Assembly (NCBI GenBank): GCA_964016885.1
Contig: OZ024742.1
Coordinates: 34,534,001-34,598,000, forward strand
From: Eledone cirrhosa
Taxonomy: Eukaryota
DNA length: 64,000 bases
Direction: 5' to 3'
Each line of letters begins with the position of its first letter. The first letter of the stretch is position 1. Both the position numbers and the translations under genes were made by a program. Below the pieces are notes generated by a model. The model saw only the letters and a program-made list of their open reading frames with translations. It ran no database searches and was not told the DNA's origin. Below are positions 3,095-54,340 of this stretch, one piece after another.

Positions 3095-3209
3095 CGTCTT
3101 ATGGTAGCTAAGATGCGTCCATAGGCGGTATGCCGGTTGAGCACTCTGTGCGCCTACGCGATAAAATGGAAAACGATGAATCAGTGATGCATCGGAACTC
3201 AAATTATTA

Positions 3210-3300
3210 CGTGTTACAATTGTTTCCCCGGCGGACAGCGCGATGTTCGATCAGTATGTGGATCTAACTTGACTCTGGATTCGCAGGTTCCTCAGACACG
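3210..3300 (-). ncRNA. Type I hammerhead ribozyme with long helix II (CUGAGGA core)
   Basis: Minus strand cgtgt-CTGAGGA-a-cctgc...gccggg-GAAAC-aatt-GUA-acacg; perfect 5-bp stem I. Confidence 0.75.
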
Positions 3301-3371
3301 TCTAGTGGTTTCGGATCAATATATATATACATGCAAACACACACACACACACACACACTCACACACACACT

Positions 3372-4360: not shown

Positions 4361-4431
4361 TATTTTATCTGATGAGAACGCAAATATCATCCCATGATGA
4401 TATTTGTTTTTGAAATGCGCATAATAAAATA
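4361..4431 (+). ncRNA. Type I hammerhead ribozyme with palindromic helix III
   Basis: tattttat-CTGATGA-...gcaaatatcatc-ccat-gatgatatttgt...-GAAA-tgcgca-UA-ataaaata; 8-bp stem I and atgcgcat palindrome. Confidence 0.82.
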
Positions 4432-22074: not shown

Positions 22075-22113
<39 letters not shown>

Positions 22114-22159
22114 CAGGAAAGAAGGTTGACATGGTTTGCTATACAAAAAAGGTTTTTAA

Positions 22160-22280
22160 TCTCATAGCTGACAATTGTTTCTCTGAACTGGTAGGTCTAG
22201 AGATCGCTATTCGCTTGTTTTCACGTTACTCGATCGCCAATACAAAATTATAACCAGTCAGTTCTTCGGAGCGTGCGAGA
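22160..22280 (-). ncRNA. Hammerhead variant (CCGAAGA), related Naiad pLTR relic
   Basis: Minus strand gct-CCGAAGA-a-ctgactggt...accagttcag-a-GAAAC-aatt-GUC-agc, with palindromic acaattgt helix III. Confidence 0.7.
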
Positions 22281-22715
22281 ATGAAGAGAATATACAGGCA
22301 TGAAAAGAATATACAGGCTACTATATGAAGTAGTAATGGCATTCAGTTAGAACAATAACAACAATTACAACAATGCTATGAATAAATTATTTGAGGAGAC
22401 CCTGACATTACTTAGGTGTGTGTGGGGGGGGGGGGGGGGTATAGTGTATCTAAGATTTCGGCATGTAAAACTAGCTGACATGAAGCAGAAGTAAAAGTTT
22501 GGCATGTACAGAGTATCGTAGTGTGTATGAATTTTAAATGTTAAAGATAAGCTGGTGTTTACAGTCTTTCATAGGAATTACAGCACATCCGCAGCATCAC
22601 TATGAAAACGCCTTGTTGAGTCAAACCAAGCCAAGCGTTGATATCATCCACTACCTGGAATACCATAACTGGACTATACCTAAGTGGACTGCATCTAACT
22701 ATTATTTGTTACCCC

Positions 22716-23642: not shown

Positions 23643-24552
23643 AGAGTGCTCAACCGGCATATATATATATATTTCTATATAATTAATACAATAACAGAGA
23701 TAGTTTAAAGCTAATCTCTGACTGGTAACCATCTCACTCAACAAACATTAGGTTATATTTTAATATAAACCCAATTTAAGTGTTTGGGGTGCTAACAATA
23801 TGTATTATGTGGAAAAGCCAGTTGTATTATTTTACGAGATATAATTAAAGTTAAAATATATCTCTCTTTCCAAACAATTGTTTCATTATAAGTTTTCTAC
23901 AAATTCGGAGAATATTTCCAGTTTATGTAGAAGCCTAATATACATTCATGTAAGAATATATTTAGGTGGGCGTTTATAAATCATCAGTGGAAGCCCATTA
24001 AACTTTGATATAAGAAAACCATTTCTTACCAGAGTTAAAAATCGTGTCTGTTAAGTTGCTCCTTCCCGCATCGAATGACCGGCAAATTTGAAATTCCAGC
24101 AGTTTTTGACTGAGGAAGTATCATAGCGTCACTAAGCGGGAAGGGGAGACAACTACGATCCACGAAAGGAGGAAAAATAATAATATACACGCGGGTTAAT
24201 CAGTTTTTTCGAAAACATTATCAATCCAACGTGTTAAGAACTCAATTGAAATTAAAAAAATAAATATATGCGTGTATAAATTACATACGCATATAGATAT
24301 TTTCTTAGGCTAAAATCAGAGGTTGTACCTGAATAAGAAACCGCATCTCGTAACCGTAGTAAATACGGAAAGTTATGCTTTAAAAGGCAAATGGGAATGT
24401 AAATCTCCGGCCGAATTGAGAGTAAAATATAAAACACACGCTGGTTAATTAGTTATTTCAAAACTAATATCAATTCCTCGTGTAAAGAACTCAATTAATT
24501 TAAAAAAATAAATGTATGCATGTAATTATATACATAGGCATATATATATTTT

Positions 24553-26278: not shown

Positions 26279-26377
26279 GCGTGTTACAATTGTTTCGCCG
26301 GCAGATAGCTCGGCTCGAGACATGATCATTGTATGGATCTGCCTGATTCTATAACTGCGGGTTCTTCGGACACATGC
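26279..26377 (-). ncRNA. Hammerhead variant (CCGAAGA), same repeat family as 3210-3300
   Basis: Minus strand gcatgtgt-CCGAAGA-a-cccgcagttatag...ctatctgccggc-GAAAC-aatt-GUA-acacgc. Confidence 0.68.
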
Positions 26378-26654
26378 AATGCTTTCGGAGCAAATTTTCT
26401 AACTGGGATGTTAGCTTAAAAAACACCTTTAAAAACCCTCTTCCACTCTTGTCTTGCCATTGGCTGTTGTTTGTCTACGTCATCATAAATTCTGGTCAAT
26501 ATTTGCTGCCACACTGGTCATCAGCTACTCTCCGTCCGACACACTTCAATGAACTCATGGTGGGTTAGGTATCTCACAAGTCCGCTCACACTCACAAATA
26601 TATACCCACACATACACACACACATATAAATACACATACACATACACACACGCA

Positions 26655-27496: not shown

Positions 27497-27560
27497 TTTT
27501 ATTATACATATTTCAGAGGTACTTGAATCAGGTTCCACAGTACGTCCTCATCAGATAAAA
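27497..27560 (-). ncRNA. Type I hammerhead ribozyme
   Basis: Minus strand ttttat-CTGATGA-ggacgtact...agtacctct-GAAA-tatgta-UA-ataaaa. Confidence 0.72.
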
Positions 27561-36324: not shown

Positions 36325-37065
36325 TATGTTTCTTTTATTTGCCACCAGGGCATCAAAAGTGGGACAAGTACAATGGGGGGAGTTTACAAAACAAGGCGTC
36401 CTCAATAAGGAGGAGGCAATAACAAAATATAAAAATAAAATAAAATATAACAATAAAATTTATAACAAAATCCTCAATAGAGAGGAGGCGCCTTGGGGGG
36501 TCGCACACACCCCCGAAAAAAAGTGTGCAACCCTTTTCCTCAGGAGCACAGAGAAGGGGTGCTCCCTTGGTCTTTCATCTTCCTCACCTATAGTCTGATG
36601 TAGAGTGAAGGCCCATTCACACGGGCCATTCTCGCCACTTTCACCCATCTTTCATAAAAACGGCTGGGGTGCAGCACCTCTCTCTCCATCCTGATCCTTC
36701 TTCCGAAATGATATCGGAAGAAACGGACCAGCTGTTGGCCAGAGAGAAAGGTGTCTGACCTCAGTCCTTTCAGACGCGTCCACCATACAACCTCTTTCGC
36801 CATGGCTATTACGCACAGAAACACCGCCTCTCCTTCGTTTTTGAAGAGGGGAGGCGGCTTGATCGTTACAATAGACTCGGTGGTCAACCGGATCGGTCCC
36901 ACCCTTGACAGCAGTTGTTCGACATAGCCCCACAGATCGGCAATGCCCGAGCAGTGTACCAATGCGTGTGCAACGGTTTCCTCGTCGCACACGCATCTGG
37001 GACAGATCTTTTTCGAGGGGTCCCTACCCGGGCGCCCGTGTCTGTAGAGCCTTTCTCGATACAAC
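36325..37065 (-). mobile_element. 3' fragment of a Tx1/L1-like LINE (CCHC zinc-finger tail) in a microsatellite
   Basis: CPRC...EETVAHALVHC...LW motif in ORF 36588-37079; 3' UTR ends aataaaagaa next to (TA)n. Confidence 0.72.
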
Positions 37066-37361
37066 ACACACACACACATATATATATATATGTGTGTGTG
37101 TTAGGTCACTCTTGAGTGCTACTGGTAACATGTAAACCAGTACAACCTGTCGCATGGTCAGGTCGGGTCGTCGGCGACTAAACTGGAAACCATACCAAGT
37201 TTACTTGGTGAGAATGGTGATTTTGGACACCATGCAGGACAAAAAACAAAACCTGACAAAGGGCGGAAGAACTCATAAAAGTCAACGGCCATCCTAGAAT
37301 GTGTAATAATGTATATACACATATACATATGTATGTGTATGTATATGCGTGTGTATATGAC

Positions 37362-40138: not shown

Positions 40139-41321
40139 AATATATATAATGCCAATCATTGTAAGTTTGAATCTAACTGACATGCAAAAGTATATATATA
40201 GGAATAAGGTAAGCCCAAATCATAGTAGATTCAAATATCCCCAAGGGAAAGTGAGAGAGAAGGGGGGGGGATGAGGTGCAACAGAAATGAAACATGGATT
40301 ACAGGTTAAAATATAGTCTAGATAGATGTGAAGCAAAACGAAAATATAGTTTATGGAACACCCAAATGATTTAGAAGTCGACCTTAAGTAGGAACAATAA
40401 CATTAAGAAAGACATGAATGACACAACAACACTTTGTTTTGAAAATTTTGAAAGTAAGTTCATAAGTACGAATTTTTTAAAGACATTCGTAGTTGTCGCT
40501 GTGGCCTAGCGGTTGGTACTAGAGACGGTAAAAATCCTGTCCTTGGGTTCAATCCTGGTCAAGAAGTACATATAATCTTTTTCAGTTTTTATTTTACAAC
40601 CCATAGAAAAAAAAACTGAAAAGGTTCACTGGAAACCCTACTCGCGATCAGGATCGAACTTCAGACCAAGATCACCACCGCCTATGAAACCACCAATTCG
40701 GCCACCGAGACAGCTACGAAAGTATAATGAAAATTGATAATTATAAACCTACTTTCAAAATCAAAGTTAAAAAGATGAGGTGTCGTTCATGGCTTTCCAT
40801 GAGCTATTAGTAATATTTAGGGTCGACTTCTGGTCGTTATTGAAAGTCTCTGGATTTCGCAAAACATAATATTTTTATTAGAGATGGTAAGATATTTTTC
40901 CGCAAAAACATGATTGCACTGTTTTGTTTCCACTTATGTATTTTTAGAAAATGTTATTTATTCATTATAAAAATTAAATGATAGCGTTCTATATGTAGCC
41001 CCCCCCCCCCCCCACACACACACACCTTCATCTCTTGGCAACCAATATTTTTAGACCCAGTCGGCCTCTGTTGATAGTTATCATGATTCGGTTTGTATTA
41101 TTTCTTAATTTATTCTTTTAATTTTTGTTCATAGGTAGTATCTTATAGGTAGTATTTTTGTTCATAGGTAGTATCTTATTCACCTTAGAGATTTAGGTCC
41201 CTTATGATTTGAACGCATATATGTATATATCTGTTTGCAGGTATGTATATTTTTGTACGAGTGTATATTAGTGTGTATGTATGTGTCTATGTACACATAT
41301 ATGTGTATGTGTATTTATATT

Positions 41322-41396
<75 letters not shown>

Positions 41397-41750
41397 AGAT
41401 ATATGCGTATATTAATTCGTTAACCTCTGTATTAACTCTACAACTATTGAGCTTTGACAGTGGTCCCACTCATGTATACGGTTGAAGATGAAGAGAAAGA
41501 CTGTAAAAACTAGCTTATCTTTATAATTTAAAATTGATACACACTACGATACTTTTTGCCTTATGACAGCTGGTTTTCACGCTGTAACATTAGATACATT
41601 ATATACCCCCCACCTAAGTAATGTCAGGGTCTCCTTAAATAGTTTATTGATAGCATTGTTGTAATAATTGTTGTTGTTTATTGTTCTAATTGAATGCCAT
41701 AACTACTCCATATTTTCTTTTATTTTCTTGCCTGTGTATTTTCTTCATTC

Positions 41751-41869
41751 TCGCATGCTCCGAAGATCTGACTGGTTATAATTCTGTATTGGCGATCGAG
41801 TGACGCAAAATTAGGCGGATAGCGATCTCTAGACATACCAGTTCAGTGAAACAAATGTAAGCTATGTGA
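41751..41869 (+). ncRNA. Type I hammerhead ribozyme variant (CCGAAGA core, long helix II) in the 5' pLTR
   Basis: Stem I tcgcat-gct / agc-t-atgtga; core CCGAAGA; helix II ctga-ctggt...accag-t-tcag; GAAAC-aaat-GUA with predicted cleavage after 41859. Confidence 0.72.
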
Positions 41870-42139
41870 TTAAAAACTTTTTTGTATAGCAAACCATGTA
41901 AACCTTCTTTCCTGATTTATTATTACTCCAAGTGTTTACAACATAGGAATTACAGCATACCCGCAGCATCACTATGAAAACGCCTTGTTGAGTCAAACCA
42001 AGCCAAGCGTTAATATCATCCACTACCTGGAATACCATAACTGGACTTCACCTAAGTGGACTGCATTTAACTATTATTTGTTAATCCGTATATTTAGCTC
42101 CCACCTGGTCGAGCAACACCATTAACGCACGGCAACAAC

Positions 42140-44524
42140 ATGGAGAAGCACTGTATAGGTATGTCACTAAAAAACATACCTGTACCTACAAAAAAGGACT
42201 ATACACTGGGCATGATACGACGGACTAATGATTTCATCCGCAGGGTCCGATGGAAAGCTTACCATTTCGATAAGGGACCGAATACCAACAGAAGGGAATT
42301 TTCCAAGGAGAATTACGGGTTTAAATCCTGCAAAAACCCGCCAAACAACCCCGCACTCGATGCCTTCGAGCTGGATCTTATGAACATGATAAGTGAAACT
42401 AAATTTAAAAAAAGAACAAATCACAACAAATTGCAAAATGACTTAAACACATTACTTAAAAAACTAAAAGACACTAACGGTATCATAGTAAAAGCAGACA
42501 AAACATCAAACGTATACTCTATGGACATTAACACATACAATAACTTTATTCAGCGTGAACTACATAAAAAATATAAAAAAACAAATGAATCTACACTCAC
42601 CAGCATAAACATGGAGGGCCTCAAGATAGTTAATAAACTCGGAATTTCAGATAGGACCGAACCGCTTACCCCGTGCAACCCTACATTTAACCTGAAAGAT
42701 CACAAAAATAACTTTGAAACTAATCCTACCATTAGATTAATATGCCCATCCAAGTCAGACATAGGTAAAATTAGCAAAAACATTCTAGATAGGGTAATCG
42801 CACAAATAAAGGGTAAACTAGAAATCAATCTATGGGGCAACACTAACGAGGCAATTAAATGGTTCAATAAAATACAAAATAGGGATACGTGTAACTTCAT
42901 ACAATTTGATATAGACGACTATTATGCATCCATATCCCCAGCTACCCTAGATAAGGCGCTTATATTTGCCCAAAATAACTCTGATCTTACCCATGATGAA
43001 ATTGAAATAATAATAGCGGCTAGAAGGACTATCGTAAAATTTGAAAATAACTACTGGGTAAGAAAGGATAGAATAAATAGCTTCGATATTACAATGGGTT
43101 CAAATGATTCTGCGCAAATTACAGATATCGTGGGGCTATTCATAGCACACAACCTACATAAGGAATTCAGTAACCTCCAAGGAGGAATTTATAGGGACGA
43201 CACGTTACTTATAGCTAGGAACCTAAACAACCAGAGCATGGAAAGACTAAGGAAAAATATTAGAATATTCTTCAAAAAACTAGGCCTAAGTATTACCTAC
43301 GAACTCAACCATAAGAAGGTAAATTTTCTAGATGTAACTCTAAATCTAAATACTGGATTAATAGAACCTTTCCACAAAAATAATGAAAATCTTGCCTACA
43401 TTAGTTACAACTCAAATCACCCCAAATCCATAATTAAATCCATAGCACGTAGTATATCTCTCCGAATATCCCGCCTATCCTCAAACCTAGAAATCTTTAA
43501 CGAGCATGCTGACTATTATAATGCAGCATTAAGTAGGGCCGGTCATAAAGATAAACTACAGTATATAGTGAATAAGGACAACATAAACAATCCTAGTAAT
43601 TTCTACTCCAACCGCTCACATAATAATAGGAATAGCTTGACTAGACATAGGGTTAGACATGTAACACCTAGAATAAACGGCCAAAACACTAATAACGTAA
43701 ACCCTAGAAACAATAGAAGAAACAGACAAAGGAAATACCTATGGTTCAACCCAATATTCAACTCCTCTATAAAAACTAGACTGCCCTCTATATTCTTTAA
43801 ACTAATAGATAAACACTTCCCTATCTCGCATAGATATCACAAACTACTCAATAGATCTACTATAAAACTCTCTTTTTCAACAGCAGCTAACATAGAATCA
43901 CACATACGCAAGATCAACCGCAGAAATATCTCAAGTAAATCAATTGCACCTATACATAAGCACAAACTCATCACAACATCACAACCACAAGCGCATACAA
44001 ACGCGCAGCAGCAAAACCCCATTGGGCATATATCACAACCCACTTATAACAGGGTACTAAATAGGAATGTAAAAGCTGCACATAATAGCGCCTCAAACTG
44101 CAACTGTCACCTCCCAGATAGGTACCCATTGGCGAATAGATGTCTCGATTCGAGCCTGGTGTACATGTGCACTGTCATCTCGGGTAACTCCACTTGGAAT
44201 TACATAGGATCCACCGCGGGTTCTTTTAAGAAAAGATGGTATGTGCATAGGCACTCGATGAAAAACCGAGCTCTTATGGGTTCCACCACTCTCGCCAGAA
44301 AAATATGGGAATTGAAGGACAGCAACGCTAGCTACACTATCAACTGGTCGAAGTTGTCGGCTGCTAAAACCTATAGTACAGGTATGTCTTATTGCGGGCT
44401 GTGTGATCTTGAGCTATTGTATATCCTTAGAAATGTTAAAAGACTACTTAATAATAAGTTAGAAAGATCTATCTTCTGCAGGCATAGAATAGCCACTAAA
44501 TTCATAAGATTCAAACCTCCGTGA
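42140..44524 (+). CDS. Penelope-like retroelement (Naiad-type) reverse transcriptase + C-terminal GIY-YIG endonuclease, 794 aa, uninterrupted
   Basis: PLE N-terminal motifs (RRVRWKAYHF, KADKT). RT motifs FDIDDYY, MGSNDSAQ, IYRDD, FLDVTL. Cys linker CNCxxxxxYPLxxxC. GIY-YIG LVY...YIG...FKKRW..H, then CGLCDLE and terminal CRH. YRDD plus this endonuclease layout matches Naiad-clade PLEs (clade by recognition, not by search). Confidence 0.93.
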   Translation: MEKHCIGMSLKNIPVPTKKDYTLGMIRRTNDFIRRVRWKAYHFDKGPNTNRREFSKENYGFKSCKNPPNNPALDAFELDLMNMISETKFKKRTNHNKLQNDLNTLLKKLKDTNGIIVKADKTSNVYSMDINTYNNFIQRELHKKYKKTNESTLTSINMEGLKIVNKLGISDRTEPLTPCNPTFNLKDHKNNFETNPTIRLICPSKSDIGKISKNILDRVIAQIKGKLEINLWGNTNEAIKWFNKIQNRDTCNFIQFDIDDYYASISPATLDKALIFAQNNSDLTHDEIEIIIAARRTIVKFENNYWVRKDRINSFDITMGSNDSAQITDIVGLFIAHNLHKEFSNLQGGIYRDDTLLIARNLNNQSMERLRKNIRIFFKKLGLSITYELNHKKVNFLDVTLNLNTGLIEPFHKNNENLAYISYNSNHPKSIIKSIARSISLRISRLSSNLEIFNEHADYYNAALSRAGHKDKLQYIVNKDNINNPSNFYSNRSHNNRNSLTRHRVRHVTPRINGQNTNNVNPRNNRRNRQRKYLWFNPIFNSSIKTRLPSIFFKLIDKHFPISHRYHKLLNRSTIKLSFSTAANIESHIRKINRRNISSKSIAPIHKHKLITTSQPQAHTNAQQQNPIGHISQPTYNRVLNRNVKAAHNSASNCNCHLPDRYPLANRCLDSSLVYMCTVISGNSTWNYIGSTAGSFKKRWYVHRHSMKNRALMGSTTLARKIWELKDSNASYTINWSKLSAAKTYSTGMSYCGLCDLELLYILRNVKRLLNNKLERSIFCRHRIATKFIRFKPP

Positions 44525-44857
44525 ATCGAACCAACATAACATAGCTTTAAATTAGGATACCTACTACCCACAGAAATATATTCATTAAGTATACTATTTC
44601 CTTCACAAGTCTATACCACACAATAGTCTGTAAATACCTCTTCTACCAACACTCTTACTCCTTCTCAGCTGCTGCAATCATTTGATCCTAGATCCTAGTT
44701 TTTCTCATTTCACTACTACAATGTTACTTTACCTTCTTTTTGCCATATTACAATTAGCACGCTTTTCTCTTTGCATGTATGTATATTTTTGTACGAGTGT
44801 ATATTAGTGTGTATGTATGTGTCTATGTACACATATATGTGTATGTGTATTTATATT

Positions 44858-44934
<77 letters not shown>

Positions 44935-45288
44935 AGATATATGCGTATATTAATTCGTTAACCTCTGTATTAACTCTACAACTATTGAGCTTTGACAGTG
45001 GTCCCACTCATGTATACGGTTGAAGATGAAGAGAAAGACTGTAAAAACTAGCTTATCTTTATAATTTAAAATTGATACACACTACGATACTTTTTGCCTT
45101 ATGACAGCTGGTTTTCACGCTGTAACATTAGATACATTATATACCCCCCACCTAAGTAATGTCAGGGTCTCCTTAAATAGTTTATTGATAGCATTGTTGT
45201 AATAATTGTTGTTGTTTATTGTTCTAATTGAATGCCATAACTACTCCATATTTTCTTTTATTTTCTTGCCTGTGTATTTTCTTCATTC

Positions 45289-45407
45289 TCGCATGCTCCG
45301 AAGATCTGACTGGTTATAATTCTGTATTGGCGATCGAGTGACGCAAAATTAGGCGGATAGCGATCTCTAGACATACCAGTTCAGTGAAACAAATGTAAGC
45401 TATGTGA
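45289..45407 (+). ncRNA. Type I hammerhead ribozyme variant (CCGAAGA core) in the 3' pLTR
   Basis: Identical copy of 41751-41869. Confidence 0.72.
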
Positions 45408-45625
45408 TTAAAAACTTTTTTGTATAGCAAACCATGTAAACCTTCTTTCCTGATTTATTATTACTCCAAGTGTTTACAACATAGGAATTACAGCATACCC
45501 GCAGCATCACTATGAAAACGCCTTGTTGAGTCAAACCAAGCCAAGCGTTAATATCATCCACTACCTGGAATACCATAACTGGACTTCACCTAAGTGGACT
45601 GCATTTAACTATTATTTGTTAATCC

Positions 45626-45725
<100 letters not shown>

Positions 45726-45788
45726 ATATATATATATATAATTCAAGAAAAAAGAGTGACATGGTTCGCTATACAATAAGGGCTTTAT

Positions 45789-45909
45789 TCACATTGCTGA
45801 CAATTGTTTCTTCGATCTGGTAGGTCTAGAGTTCGATACTCGCCTGATTTTGCATCAATCAATCTCCAATACTTTGTTTATGACCAGTCGTTTTCATCGG
45901 AGCACGCGA
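45789..45909 (-). ncRNA. Hammerhead variant (CCGAUGA), divergent Naiad pLTR relic
   Basis: Minus strand tgct-CCGATGA-aaa-cgactggt...accagatcg-aa-GAAAC-aatt-GUC-agca. Helix II base differs from the 41751 copy but still pairs. Confidence 0.68.
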
Positions 45910-46475
45910 TATACGGAGTACTCTAACTGGACTACATCTAAGTGGACTGCCTATAAAGATAACCTGTTATCCTGTATATATATATATATATTTATATATC
46001 TTAAGGTTACTTGCATAATTAGAAGATCGAACGAGTGGAAAAACAATCGGAGATTTTCCCTTCCTATCGGATGACTACGTCTCTGTATATATATATATAT
46101 ATATATATTTATTTATTTATTTAAAAATTACTTATCCCTTATAAATTATTTTAAAAAAAATTTTCTCAAATTTTTCAATATTTTTTCAATACTTTATCAA
46201 TATTTTTTAAATATTTTTCAATAGATTTATAACCACTAACTGATTCTGTCTAAATGCATCTTTCAACATCTATACTTATTTTGACTAAATAGTCTCACAC
46301 TAACGAATAAATAAATTAAACCGGAGTTTTTTCCGTATCTTCCCATTTTAAATCATATAAATATATTAACTGAGTTAATTTAATTTAATTTAACTTAATA
46401 TTTATTTACATTAAATACAAAACCAATATCCCTCATAACTCATTAGAACAATTATCTATAAAATGATATACCCAT

Positions 46476-51038: not shown

Positions 51039-53580
51039 TTAAACCAGCCATCTCATTTCGCTTCTCTCTGATCGGTTGTTTATTTGCGGTTGCAGGCGTT
51101 TGATAAAAAGCGCTTCCTTGATACGTAACGTGCCGACGTTTCTCTCAGTCGCTAGAATTGTGACAATGGGCCTTCGGTCTTTGTTTCCGCATTTGTCTAT
51201 GTGTTTCCGGAAGGACGAGGCCCTGGTTTTAGTGTGTTCCTTGATCCGGATGTGCAAAGGTCGGATTGTGCTACCTAAGTAGTATTGGTTGCACCTGTCA
51301 CATTCTATCTTATACACGACGTTGTGCGTAGGCAACAGTTCGCATGGCGTATCGGGCAGTCTCTGAGGGAGCATGCGTCAGTAGATTTCCCGGATTTCCT
51401 GGAGAGGCATCTTCGCAGGGAGGGGCCCGAGTGGGCAAGGTGGATGTCGAGGCCCTCTCTCCGGTGGATGTCGAGGCCTTGCGGATAACGTTAGTGGTAT
51501 TCTCGCCCAGGTGTGGCATTTTAAGGAAGCACTTGCCTTGGGTGCCTCTCTGTCTCTTGTGTCTGCTATTCTGTCTGTGATCGAGGTAGGGTACCCGTTC
51601 GTCTCCAGCACCTCGAGGAATCGCTTGGTATGAGTGACACCACTCGCGGGATCGCTGCATCTGTTTTGGATTCGCGCGATCTCGTTCGTGATGTATCCTC
51701 TTTTGGCACTGTTAGGGAGGGCGGACTTGTAGTGAACGAACAGGTCCCTGCGGGCTGCCTTTCGGTAGAAGTTGCAGTGGGTCCTTCCCTGTTCCGTGAT
51801 GTTGATTCGGAAGTCGAGGAGGGCAAGTGACCCGTCTTCGTTGGGGTGTTCAACACTGAAGTCAATGTTCTCGTCTGTGTTGTTGAACGTTTCATAGATT
51901 CTGTTCGCCGTGTCTTGGGAAGATGTGAGGATGAGGATATCGTCCACGTACCTTGAGAAAAAGGCTACGGCGTTGGGGTGGCAGGCGTTGAGTGCCTTGC
52001 GTTCGAGGTTGTCCATGTAAGAGATCGCTAGCACACCTGATAGGCTTGATCCCATGGGCAATCCCGAAGTTTGTGGTATGTTTGGTCAAGGAATCCGAAT
52101 TAGGTGTTGTCGACGACGATGGATAGGAGTTGGTGGATGTCAGTGGTGGTGAGCCCGAACAGTGTAGGTCGGTGGATTGGACGCGTTCCATCAGTATATT
52201 GACGGCCGCGAGTGCCGGGACTGAGGTGTAGAGAGCGACTACATCAAGGCTGAAGGCATATCTGTTATTCCTTCTGGTGTCGGGATCCATTTGATGCAGG
52301 CGCTTCAACACCTCCTCGGAGCTGTTAACGTGTCCCGGAAAGGTGTCTAAGATGGGTTTGAGTATTCGATACGTTGGGCCTGATCTTCAGGTCGGGTCCC
52401 TGTTTGTGTGTTTTCACGAGTTGGTAGAAGGCGTGTAGTCAGCTGTTCCTCGTGAGGAGGTTGTATCTCAGCTTCTTCGGGAGCTTCCGCCGGTCGCAGA
52501 TGTTGGTCCAGGCGGCATTGATGTGCTCTTCTATCTGCGCCGGAGTGATTCCCGTGACCTTGGTGTAGAGGTTGTCATCGTCAAGGTGTTGGAGGGCCAG
52601 GGTGTTGTAGGCCTCTCTGCTGATGACGCAGAATTCTTTTCCCTTATCGGAGGGGAGATAGATGAGGTTCTTCGATTTTAGGTTGGAGAGAGTGGTGAGT
52701 TGAGATTTGGTGAGGTTATGTGTTGTGCGTGTGTGTGTGTGTCTGTGAAGTATATCCGAGATGGAGTGTTTTAGCCTGATGAGTTTAGTGTCGAGTTCGT
52801 GGTTGGTGGGTGGGGGTGGAGTGGGTTGTCGGGGTGGTAAGTGGGGAACTTGGGGTGGGTTGCGTGGGCGCTGTTATTTTCTGTGGCGCTGTTGATGGCG
52901 GTCACCCATTTAAGTTGGTAAGCGGCTCGACAAAAGTTGGCCTCGATGTTGAGTTTGAGTCTGTCGCCGAGACGTTGTGAGACGATGAACTTGGGTCCGA
53001 GGTGTAGGAGTTTCAGCTCGTCGCTCGTGAGAGTGCCGGTTAGGTCGGTGACCAGGTGCGTCGCATCGTTGAGGTATGGCTCGGTGTTGGTGGATGTGGC
53101 GGTGGCGGTTGTTGAGTTGTTGTTTCCCACGTGGTTCTGGTCCGTCTGTTCGTTAGTGTCGATATTCTCGTTGTGGCGTTTCGACAAGATCCACTCATAT
53201 TTTCGCTTGAGCCGTTTTTTCTGGTATTGGACTCTGGAGTGGTAGCACTGGTCGATTGCTTTAGTGATTTTCAGGAGCAAGTTCCCGGGTGCTATTGGCA
53301 ATCGATGTGTCCGCTCTGAGAGTGTCCGCTTATGGACGTGTAATTGGCGGTTGAGATGTCTCAGGATCTGTTTAATACACGTGCGATGTATGCGGTTAGT
53401 GGTGTTTTGGAAAGCTGGTGTACTAGGCTTACTGGTAAGCGGATGTTCCTGATGGTGTTGGGGATGACATCGTTTTTTAGGCAGCGTTTCAGGAAAATAA
53501 TTTGACAGCCAGCGTTGGCCCATTTCTCCGACAGTCTAAACAGTTCCCTTACGGATGCAAACAATTCCCGGCTCAGGTGT
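51039..53580 (-). pseudogene. Frameshifted PLE RT + GIY-YIG ORF (YVDD type; clade not resolved)
   Basis: Pieces in different frames carry LHLGPKF, SDKG, SLDVVALYTSVP, PMGSSLS, RYVDD, LLDF, FYRK and NVVYKIECDRCNQYYLGSTIRPLHIRIKEH...EALFI...PQIN. Confidence 0.9.
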
Positions 53581-54340
53581 AAGGATAAGAGAGTATTGAA
53601 GTTTGCTTGAAGCATTGTGGAATAATAAGTAAATATCTTTAAGTCGTTTGGAAGCCTCGACAATGCACATACGTCGTGTATAAGATAGAATGTGACAGGT
53701 ACAACCAATACTACATAGGTAGCACAATCCGACCTTTGCACATTCGGATCAAGGAACACACTAAAACCAGGGCCTCGTCCTTCCGGAAACACATAGACAA
53801 ATGCGGAAACAAAGACGGAAGGCCCATTGTCACAATTCTAGCGACTGAAAGAAACGTCGGCACGTTATGTATCAAGGAAGCGCTTTTTATCAAACGCCTG
53901 CAACCGCAAATAAACAACCGATCAGAGAGAAACGAAATGAGATGGCTGGTTTAAGTTAACAAACGATGCAGCAACACACAACACACGTCCACACACAAGC
54001 GAGACAACTACACACACACACACACAGTAGCATTCCACCATACGAACATACTACACTGCCAATACAGAGGAACAAGGCAATAACACACGCGCACACACAC
54101 TCAAGCGAGACAACAACACACGCACACACACACAGAGTAACATTTAACAAACAGGCAGAGAATGGACTGACAGCTAGCGCCACCCCACTCCCTCATTCGG
54201 CCGCTGACCTCTGCCCGACCGACCCCATTTCACGCGCACGCGCGCTCTGCCGAATAGCTTAGATATTCAAAACAACAAACAGCGGAGGACGCGTTTCGCA
54301 CCTGTCCGACAGACAACATTCCCCCCACCCCGGAAAAAAA

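Follow-up and report, generated by a model that had tools for sequence, protein, structure and literature searches.

The motif at 41751 of the window (the whole 64,000-nt stretch of Eledone cirrhosa DNA analysed here) has the layout of a hammerhead ribozyme, with a C where the CUGA turn has U4. This raises the question of whether the motif represents a selected new class of ribozyme or an attenuated ribozyme in which this position has been relaxed. Its parts are as follows:

41751..41869, + strand: type I hammerhead, predicted cut after 41859; stem I is 41751-41759 with 41860-41869
41760..41766, + strand: core CCGAAGA, U4 replaced by C; C4 is the consensus of the subfamily
41767..41847, + strand: helix II, 81 nt between A9 and G12, an irregular rod with U.U at 10.1/11.1, a 5' bulge, conserved GUAWU/UAGAC, and an AG/G purine loop
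41848..41859, + strand: G12 to A15.1, a 2-bp helix III with an imperfect palindrome, and the GUA triplet (from sequence and duplex energies)

Stem I consists of 3 bp, a bulged U, and 6 bp (9 bp with one bulge). Three helices meet at a junction with stem I open, and the order is core, helix II, GAAA, helix III, and NUH, as in a type I hammerhead. The GAAA lies at 41848-41851 and is followed by the 2-bp helix III with its 4-nt loop and by the GUA ending at 41859. C3, G5, A6, G8, A9, G12, A13, A14, A15.1-U16.1, and H17 are all present in the window copy; the U4 of the CUGA turn is absent, with C4 in its stead. The initial annotation had described a complete type I topology inside a pseudo-LTR (pLTR), and both the sequence and its recurrence in the second pLTR confirm this. 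The motif was also said to escape CUGANGA and short-loop descriptors, which the C4 core and the 81-nt arm bear out. The folding z-score of the window copy is -2.32 for the arm and -0.68, not significant, for the whole motif. Rfam models gave no hammerhead among the 150 listed of 156 matches, and the same models miss the canonical short hammerheads of Penelope-like elements (PLEs) in loci L120 and L289. The matches obtained for the window were only repeat-driven miRNA matches.

The motif sits in one of two direct repeats that flank a long open frame:

41230..42096, + strand: 5' pseudo-LTR, a direct repeat of 44766-45634 (blastn, 696 bp at 99.86% plus 235 bp at 98.3%)
42098..44524, + strand: 808-codon open frame, Met at 42140; reverse transcriptase (RT) with RWK, DKT, and YRDD, plus a C-terminal GIY-YIG without CCHH; Hydra clade
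44766..45634, + strand: 3' pseudo-LTR, ending in (TA)n, with an identical hammerhead inside at 45289-45407 (core 45298)

RWK, DKT, CxCX5C, together with a C-terminal GIY-YIG lacking CCHH, are listed as features of Hydra-clade PLEs in section 11 of Craig et al. (2021; PMC8557442). In the translated frame RWK is found as VRWKAY and DKT as ADKTS. The RT precedes the C-terminal GIY-YIG, CCHH is lacking, and CxxC and CxH are present. Eleven sister loci of the young family keep an intact CxCX5C linker; in the window copy its third C is changed to Y (CNC...Y). Insertion at (TA)n, a further trait of the Hydra clade, is also seen. Pfam searches with the 808-codon frame returned no match; its 79 protein relatives are 31-46% identical. 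The label Naiad-type given in the initial annotation is wrong, because the GIY-YIG endonuclease is C-terminal and the frame carries Hydra motifs, among them DKT; Naiads are described as having an N-terminal endonuclease, a CxC domain, and a DKA motif, without a canonical hammerhead (PMC8557442). Read from domain order and motifs, the element is a young Hydra-clade Penelope-like retrotransposon. A 251-bp segment is identical in 37 of the 40 matches scored from 1,539 candidates, the window's own two copies included, and the unit length of the element is 3,538 nt. Elsewhere in the window, an RT element that is broken and spread over several frames lies at 51378-53837 on the minus strand (Pfam RVT_1, E 1.7e-9) and is probably a PLE from a different clade. 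A fragment at 36588-37100, also on the minus strand, matches zf-RVT weakly and is probably what remains of a LINE.

Five further long-armed copies lie in the window, the last of which was absent from the initial annotation:

22108..22570, - strand: relic of a sister subfamily, C4, 81-nt helix II, core at 22269
45738..45982, - strand: relic, C4, 83-nt helix II, of a cluster that is mostly U4, core at 45900
26279..26385, - strand: relic of the 61-nt-arm lineage, C4, core at 26369
3200..3310, - strand: relic of the 61-nt-arm lineage, the sibling with canonical U4, core at 3295
23858..24002, - strand: distant long-armed hammerhead, U4, 96-nt helix II, core at 23987

We thus located every copy that had been named earlier, namely the C4 core in both pLTRs and in three relics, and the U4 sibling; relics and sibling are on the minus strand. 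The arm is long as described, but the stated range of 60-80 nt is not exact, as the copies named span 62-83 nt. The cluster of the relic at 45900 has U4 in 8 of 9 sampled copies. A second hammerhead class occurs at 4369, 46913, and 58102 on the plus strand and at 27554 and 19555 on the minus strand of the window. It has an arm of 28-36 nt, a palindromic helix III, an 8-bp A/U stem I, and 40,138 genome matches. A relic-like motif with A at position 4 (window 5182) was noted with another young Hydra family of the genome.

The genome was searched with a pattern comprising a 60-90 nt spacer and the same helix III as the window motif, and with the reversed pattern as control. C4 returned 4,619 matches (control 7), which excludes a chance origin of the motif, and U4 returned 4,752 (control 21). 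A purine at position 4 gave 483 matches (control 88), and the 100 of these that were listed look like scattered copies or background. A at position 5 (G5A) gave 633 (control 55). When the window lineage was searched without the core, 88 of the first 100 of 1,313 matches had C4 and 12 had U4, as counted by eye. C3, G5, A6, G8, and A9 were kept in 98-100 of the same 100, which come from several subfamilies and in which young copies dominate. The search patterns fix the 3' part of the core, and samples were picked by core pattern, so that other core variants are mostly missed and conservation is partly built in. Position 17 is A, C, or U in both C4 and U4 copies, G being excluded by the pattern. 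A sister group of the 61-nt-arm lineage (loci L203, L204, and L295-L306) carries one more base after A6, which makes its core 8 nt long, and gave 1,281 matches (control 0); among the first 100, 77 have U4, 22 have C4, and one has A4.

These counts divide the claim that C4 is the consensus. C4 is fixed in several subfamilies, including that of the window, but it is not the consensus of the class. The initial annotation had itself named a lack of genome-wide C4 consensus as evidence against its reading, and this lack is partly borne out, U4 copies being as many. We rejected CpG decay as the source of the U4 copies. Decay of CCGA should yield about as many CCAA as CTGA, and it therefore explains only a few hundred U4 copies.

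For comparison we looked at hammerheads with short arms. Among 78 metagenome Hydra loci, 39 hold 43 distinct hammerheads with arms of 10-30 nt, and 42 of the 43 have U4. The exception (L112:2659) is a short-armed C4 hammerhead upstream of a Hydra ORF, with a different and canonical hammerhead downstream; C4 thus does not strictly need a long arm. Another young Hydra family of this genome (L307-L336; 35-41% protein identity to the window's element) has a 27-nt arm, and this family, found by protein, has U4 in all 18 cores recovered from 30 loci. The unrelated class with 40,138 copies has U4 in 100 of 100 listed matches. All 26 Hydra rows of File S2 of Craig et al. (PMC8557442) have U4 and short loops. 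Of 24 long-armed clusters, nine are C-majority, 13 are U-majority, and two are tied, against one C4 in 43 short-armed motifs; the Fisher p of 1.2e-4 is inflated, as half of the cluster sample came from the C4 search and half from the U4 search. A pattern scan of viral contigs gave chance matches, with one of 80 listed loci passing a weak structure filter and its stems unconvincing.

The history of position 4 was followed in 181 distinct copies from the C4 and U4 searches, a non-random sample taken mostly from the start of contig C1. The tree of these copies, inferred with the core left out, rests on about 170 columns, and its bootstraps were not settled and its deep branches are unsure; on it position 4 has 20 changes and the free position 7 has 27. 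In a reduced set of 50 rows, from which singletons and lone minority copies were dropped, there are nine changes, compared with a shuffled mean of 15.8 and minimum of 10. A single C4 clade is rejected by the AU test on the 50 rows (p-AU 4e-79). C4 clades are found in the 81-nt, 82-nt, 79-nt, and 61-nt lineages with U4 groups in between, and this interleaving implies changes in both directions. As reconstructed from these copies, position 4 has switched repeatedly between U and C in the long-armed lineage. Its rate, near that of a free position, and the two directions of change speak against the earlier description of C4 as a selected variant. Base 4 showed no covariation with N7, H17, 10.1/11.1, or 2.1/1.1 in the 181 copies.

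The sequence past the predicted cut carries a further element:

41869..41874, + strand: AUUAAA, a polyadenylation-signal-like hexamer 10 nt past the predicted cut, identified by AWUAAA enrichment

AWUAAA occurs within 22 nt past the cut in 163 of 181 copies, compared with 2-15 of about 180 in six background windows. A polyadenylation-like hexamer past the cut site is also present in 13 of the 43 metagenome Hydra motifs. Downstream of the cut site, inserted copies stop after about 60 or 230 nt. Of the 162 copies (of 181) that have a (TA)4 run, 86 have the first such run at +50-69 nt, 31 have it at +220-239 nt, and none has it at less than 30 nt. The sample was picked for an intact motif and could not include copies that start or end at the cut. 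The two ends match the two internal reverse-transcription starts of an anole PLE, in which the hammerhead is assisted by protein and insertion in vitro can proceed without it (PMC11167929). Pile-ups of starts or ends were not found in four contig sets of unspecified kind, with at most two samples of one study.

Helix III differs among the subfamilies. It is a perfect 8-bp palindrome in 169 of the 181 copies (-6.4 kcal/mol) and imperfect in the 12 of the window's subfamily, the search patterns having admitted only these two forms. With a duplex of only -0.7 kcal/mol, the window copy does not support the dimer action that had been suggested for it.

The arm is conserved as a structure. In the 78-83-nt lineages (27 cluster representatives), 86.6% of cells pair (78.3% in shuffles), and the covariation score is 0.351 (0.196 shuffled, at most 0.119 slid), the hand-written consensus structure, drawn from the same sequences, being favoured over the controls. 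Nineteen of 29 pairs change on both sides in these lineages, 17 of 24 in helix II. The 57-63-nt group (12 representatives, consensus written in the same way) has 89.5% pairing, 14 of 29 such pairs, and a covariation score of 0.312 compared with 0.187. Stem I covaries in 2 of 3 and 4 of 6 pairs. The double-sided changes in both arm-length groups uphold the earlier description of helix II as structured and co-varying. The arm also bears invariant, non-covarying positions, the conserved AG/G loop, and the GUAWU/UAGAC segment. Pairing of the arm bulge with the 3' tail as a pseudoknot was rejected, as by eye it fits only the window's subfamily.

From these observations we consider it likely that the motif is an attenuated ribozyme relaxed at U4, a reading we favour over that of a selected new class. 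More specifically, we give a probability of roughly one half to the reading that the pLTR hammerhead is a ribozyme that cuts slowly, probably with help from protein, and is under relaxed selection for fast cutting. According to Perreault et al. (2011; PMC3088659), U4 contacts the A6-N7 phosphate, and an insertion after A6 (A6a) lowers activity. The same paper states that U4C causes a strong drop in activity in vitro yet supports viroid infectivity. C4 and the extra nucleotide after A6 would both weaken the contact of U4 with the A6-N7 phosphate and would slow cleavage. That two independent changes affect this one contact, chiefly in the long-armed lineage and with the other core positions retained, suggests that selection on the cleavage rate has relaxed. 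The template for insertion would be uncut (or re-ligated) RNA, copied from starts about 60 and 230 nt past the cut, and a cut would part the message from the polyadenylation signal just behind it. Slow cutting might be tolerated for both reasons. Residual cleavage may process a minority of tandem transcripts into unit-length RNA. What preserves the long arm would be its structure, which most likely serves the element's own protein as a module for binding or folding.

It is rather unlikely that the long helix II instead provides a tertiary contact or a protein dock which restores full activity and makes U4 dispensable. The concentration of C4 and the 8-nt core in the long-armed lineage would fit such a role, as would the invariant, non-covarying arm positions and the conserved AG/G loop, and peripheral contacts have been proposed to offset core variants (PMC3088659). 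On the other hand, we did not find by eye a complement to the 5' bulge of the arm near stem I that is conserved across lineages, none of the positions tested covaries with base 4, and the association of C4 with long arms is inflated by sampling. With a similar degree of doubt, the 60-95 nt helix II module, alone or RT-bound, might replace the U-turn contact of U4, in which case C4 and 8-nt cores would cleave canonically and be protein-switched.

Less probable again is that the motif has lost cleavage and persists as a scaffold for protein binding, the start of reverse transcription, or the polyadenylation signal. Defects do pile up in the youngest subfamily (C4, the broken helix III palindrome, and U.U at the base of the arm), and core mutants leave insertion unimpaired in another PLE (PMC11167929). 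A scaffold would not be expected to keep C3, G5, A6, G8, and A9 as closely as the core-free sample does, with its dominance of young copies, nor to keep them in lineages that share only about 40-60% identity with the window's element in their endonuclease regions. Position 17 likewise includes A, C, and U in C4 and U4 copies alike, within a pattern that excludes G.

We consider it quite improbable that C4 has been positively selected to tune cleavage down, re-arising in successful master elements. There are several separate C4 clades, including the youngest lineage, and the change from T to C makes a mutable CpG; a CpG of this kind on an AT-rich background, recurring in young subfamilies, is also what mild positive selection would produce. 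Against this, reversions to U4 are implied on the same subfamily ladder, overall copy numbers are equal, and position 4 changes at a rate close to that of position 7.

At 47 nt, the distance between GUAWU and YAG in the distal arm is below the usual minimum for animal introns, which counts against the arm being a mini-intron. That the distal arm is a retained GU-AG mini-intron, removal of which would leave an ordinary short-armed hammerhead, is the least credible explanation. In its favour, 112 of the 122 copies examined from the 78-83-nt lineages have GUAWU and 114 have YAG, the two being separated by 47 nt in 92 of 104, and pLTR introns are known in PLEs (PMC4209133). Against it, precise deletion was seen in none of 16 shortened copies of one lineage, no skipping joint was found in the four contig sets (at most two samples of one study), the 61-nt arm is too short to house such an intron, and the interval behaves as a paired, covarying helix.

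For the function of PLE hammerheads, the matched U4, C4, and 8-nt-core subfamilies with one arm form a natural test series, and one of its members is a C4 element that is amplifying at present. Spread of C4 elements in spite of slow cutting would mean that retrotransposition in vivo can do without fast cleavage; normal cutting would make the arm a new module that restores activity. At least 10,000 motifs of the Eledone cirrhosa genome escape CUGANGA descriptors with short loops. A literature search for the CCGANGA core found no paper. U4C itself is already known as a natural viroid variant. Repeated U/C switching appears to be unreported in the literature searched; key hammerhead papers stand outside that search, e.g., the work of Lunse et al. 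from 2017, reportedly a survey of variants among PLE hammerheads, in which U4C or long arms might already be recorded.

The PAc Poseidon hammerhead (PMC11167929) shares with the Eledone motif two internal reverse-transcription starts mirrored by genomic ends, with the hammerhead upstream. It has a canonical core, belongs to another clade, and was tested in vitro; the Eledone motif has a tail of about 170 nt in the window's lineage. The minimal PLE hammerheads (Cervera and de la Pena, 2014, PMC4209133) share the dimer-type helix III, a low expected activity, and family-wide core variants (U3-A8), but U4C and arms of this size are absent from the portion of that paper's main text compared here. 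Closest are the Hydra-clade PLE hammerheads (Craig et al., 2021, PMC8557442; e.g., Hydra-1_Obim), with a type I fold in the pLTR, a short palindromic helix III, and (TA)n. They share the protein motifs RWK, DKT, and CxCX5C without CCHH, and have U.U at 10.1/11.1 in 14 of 26 rows, so this feature is not new here. All 26 published rows have U4 and a loop II of 3-10 nt, in contrast to the Eledone arm of 57-97 nt, with U or C at position 4 and one 8-nt-core group. Taken as a sequence motif, the Eledone hammerhead is a long-armed Hydra-clade hammerhead in which position 4 is relaxed to a pyrimidine; it is not a Naiad motif, and C4 does not define its class. The same substitutions, with reduced but non-zero activity, are known as the natural variants U4C and A6a (PMC3088659, citing Ambros and Flores, 1998). 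Those described there are rare isolates, whereas in Eledone they are the consensus of subfamilies, with thousands of genomic copies and repeated origin.
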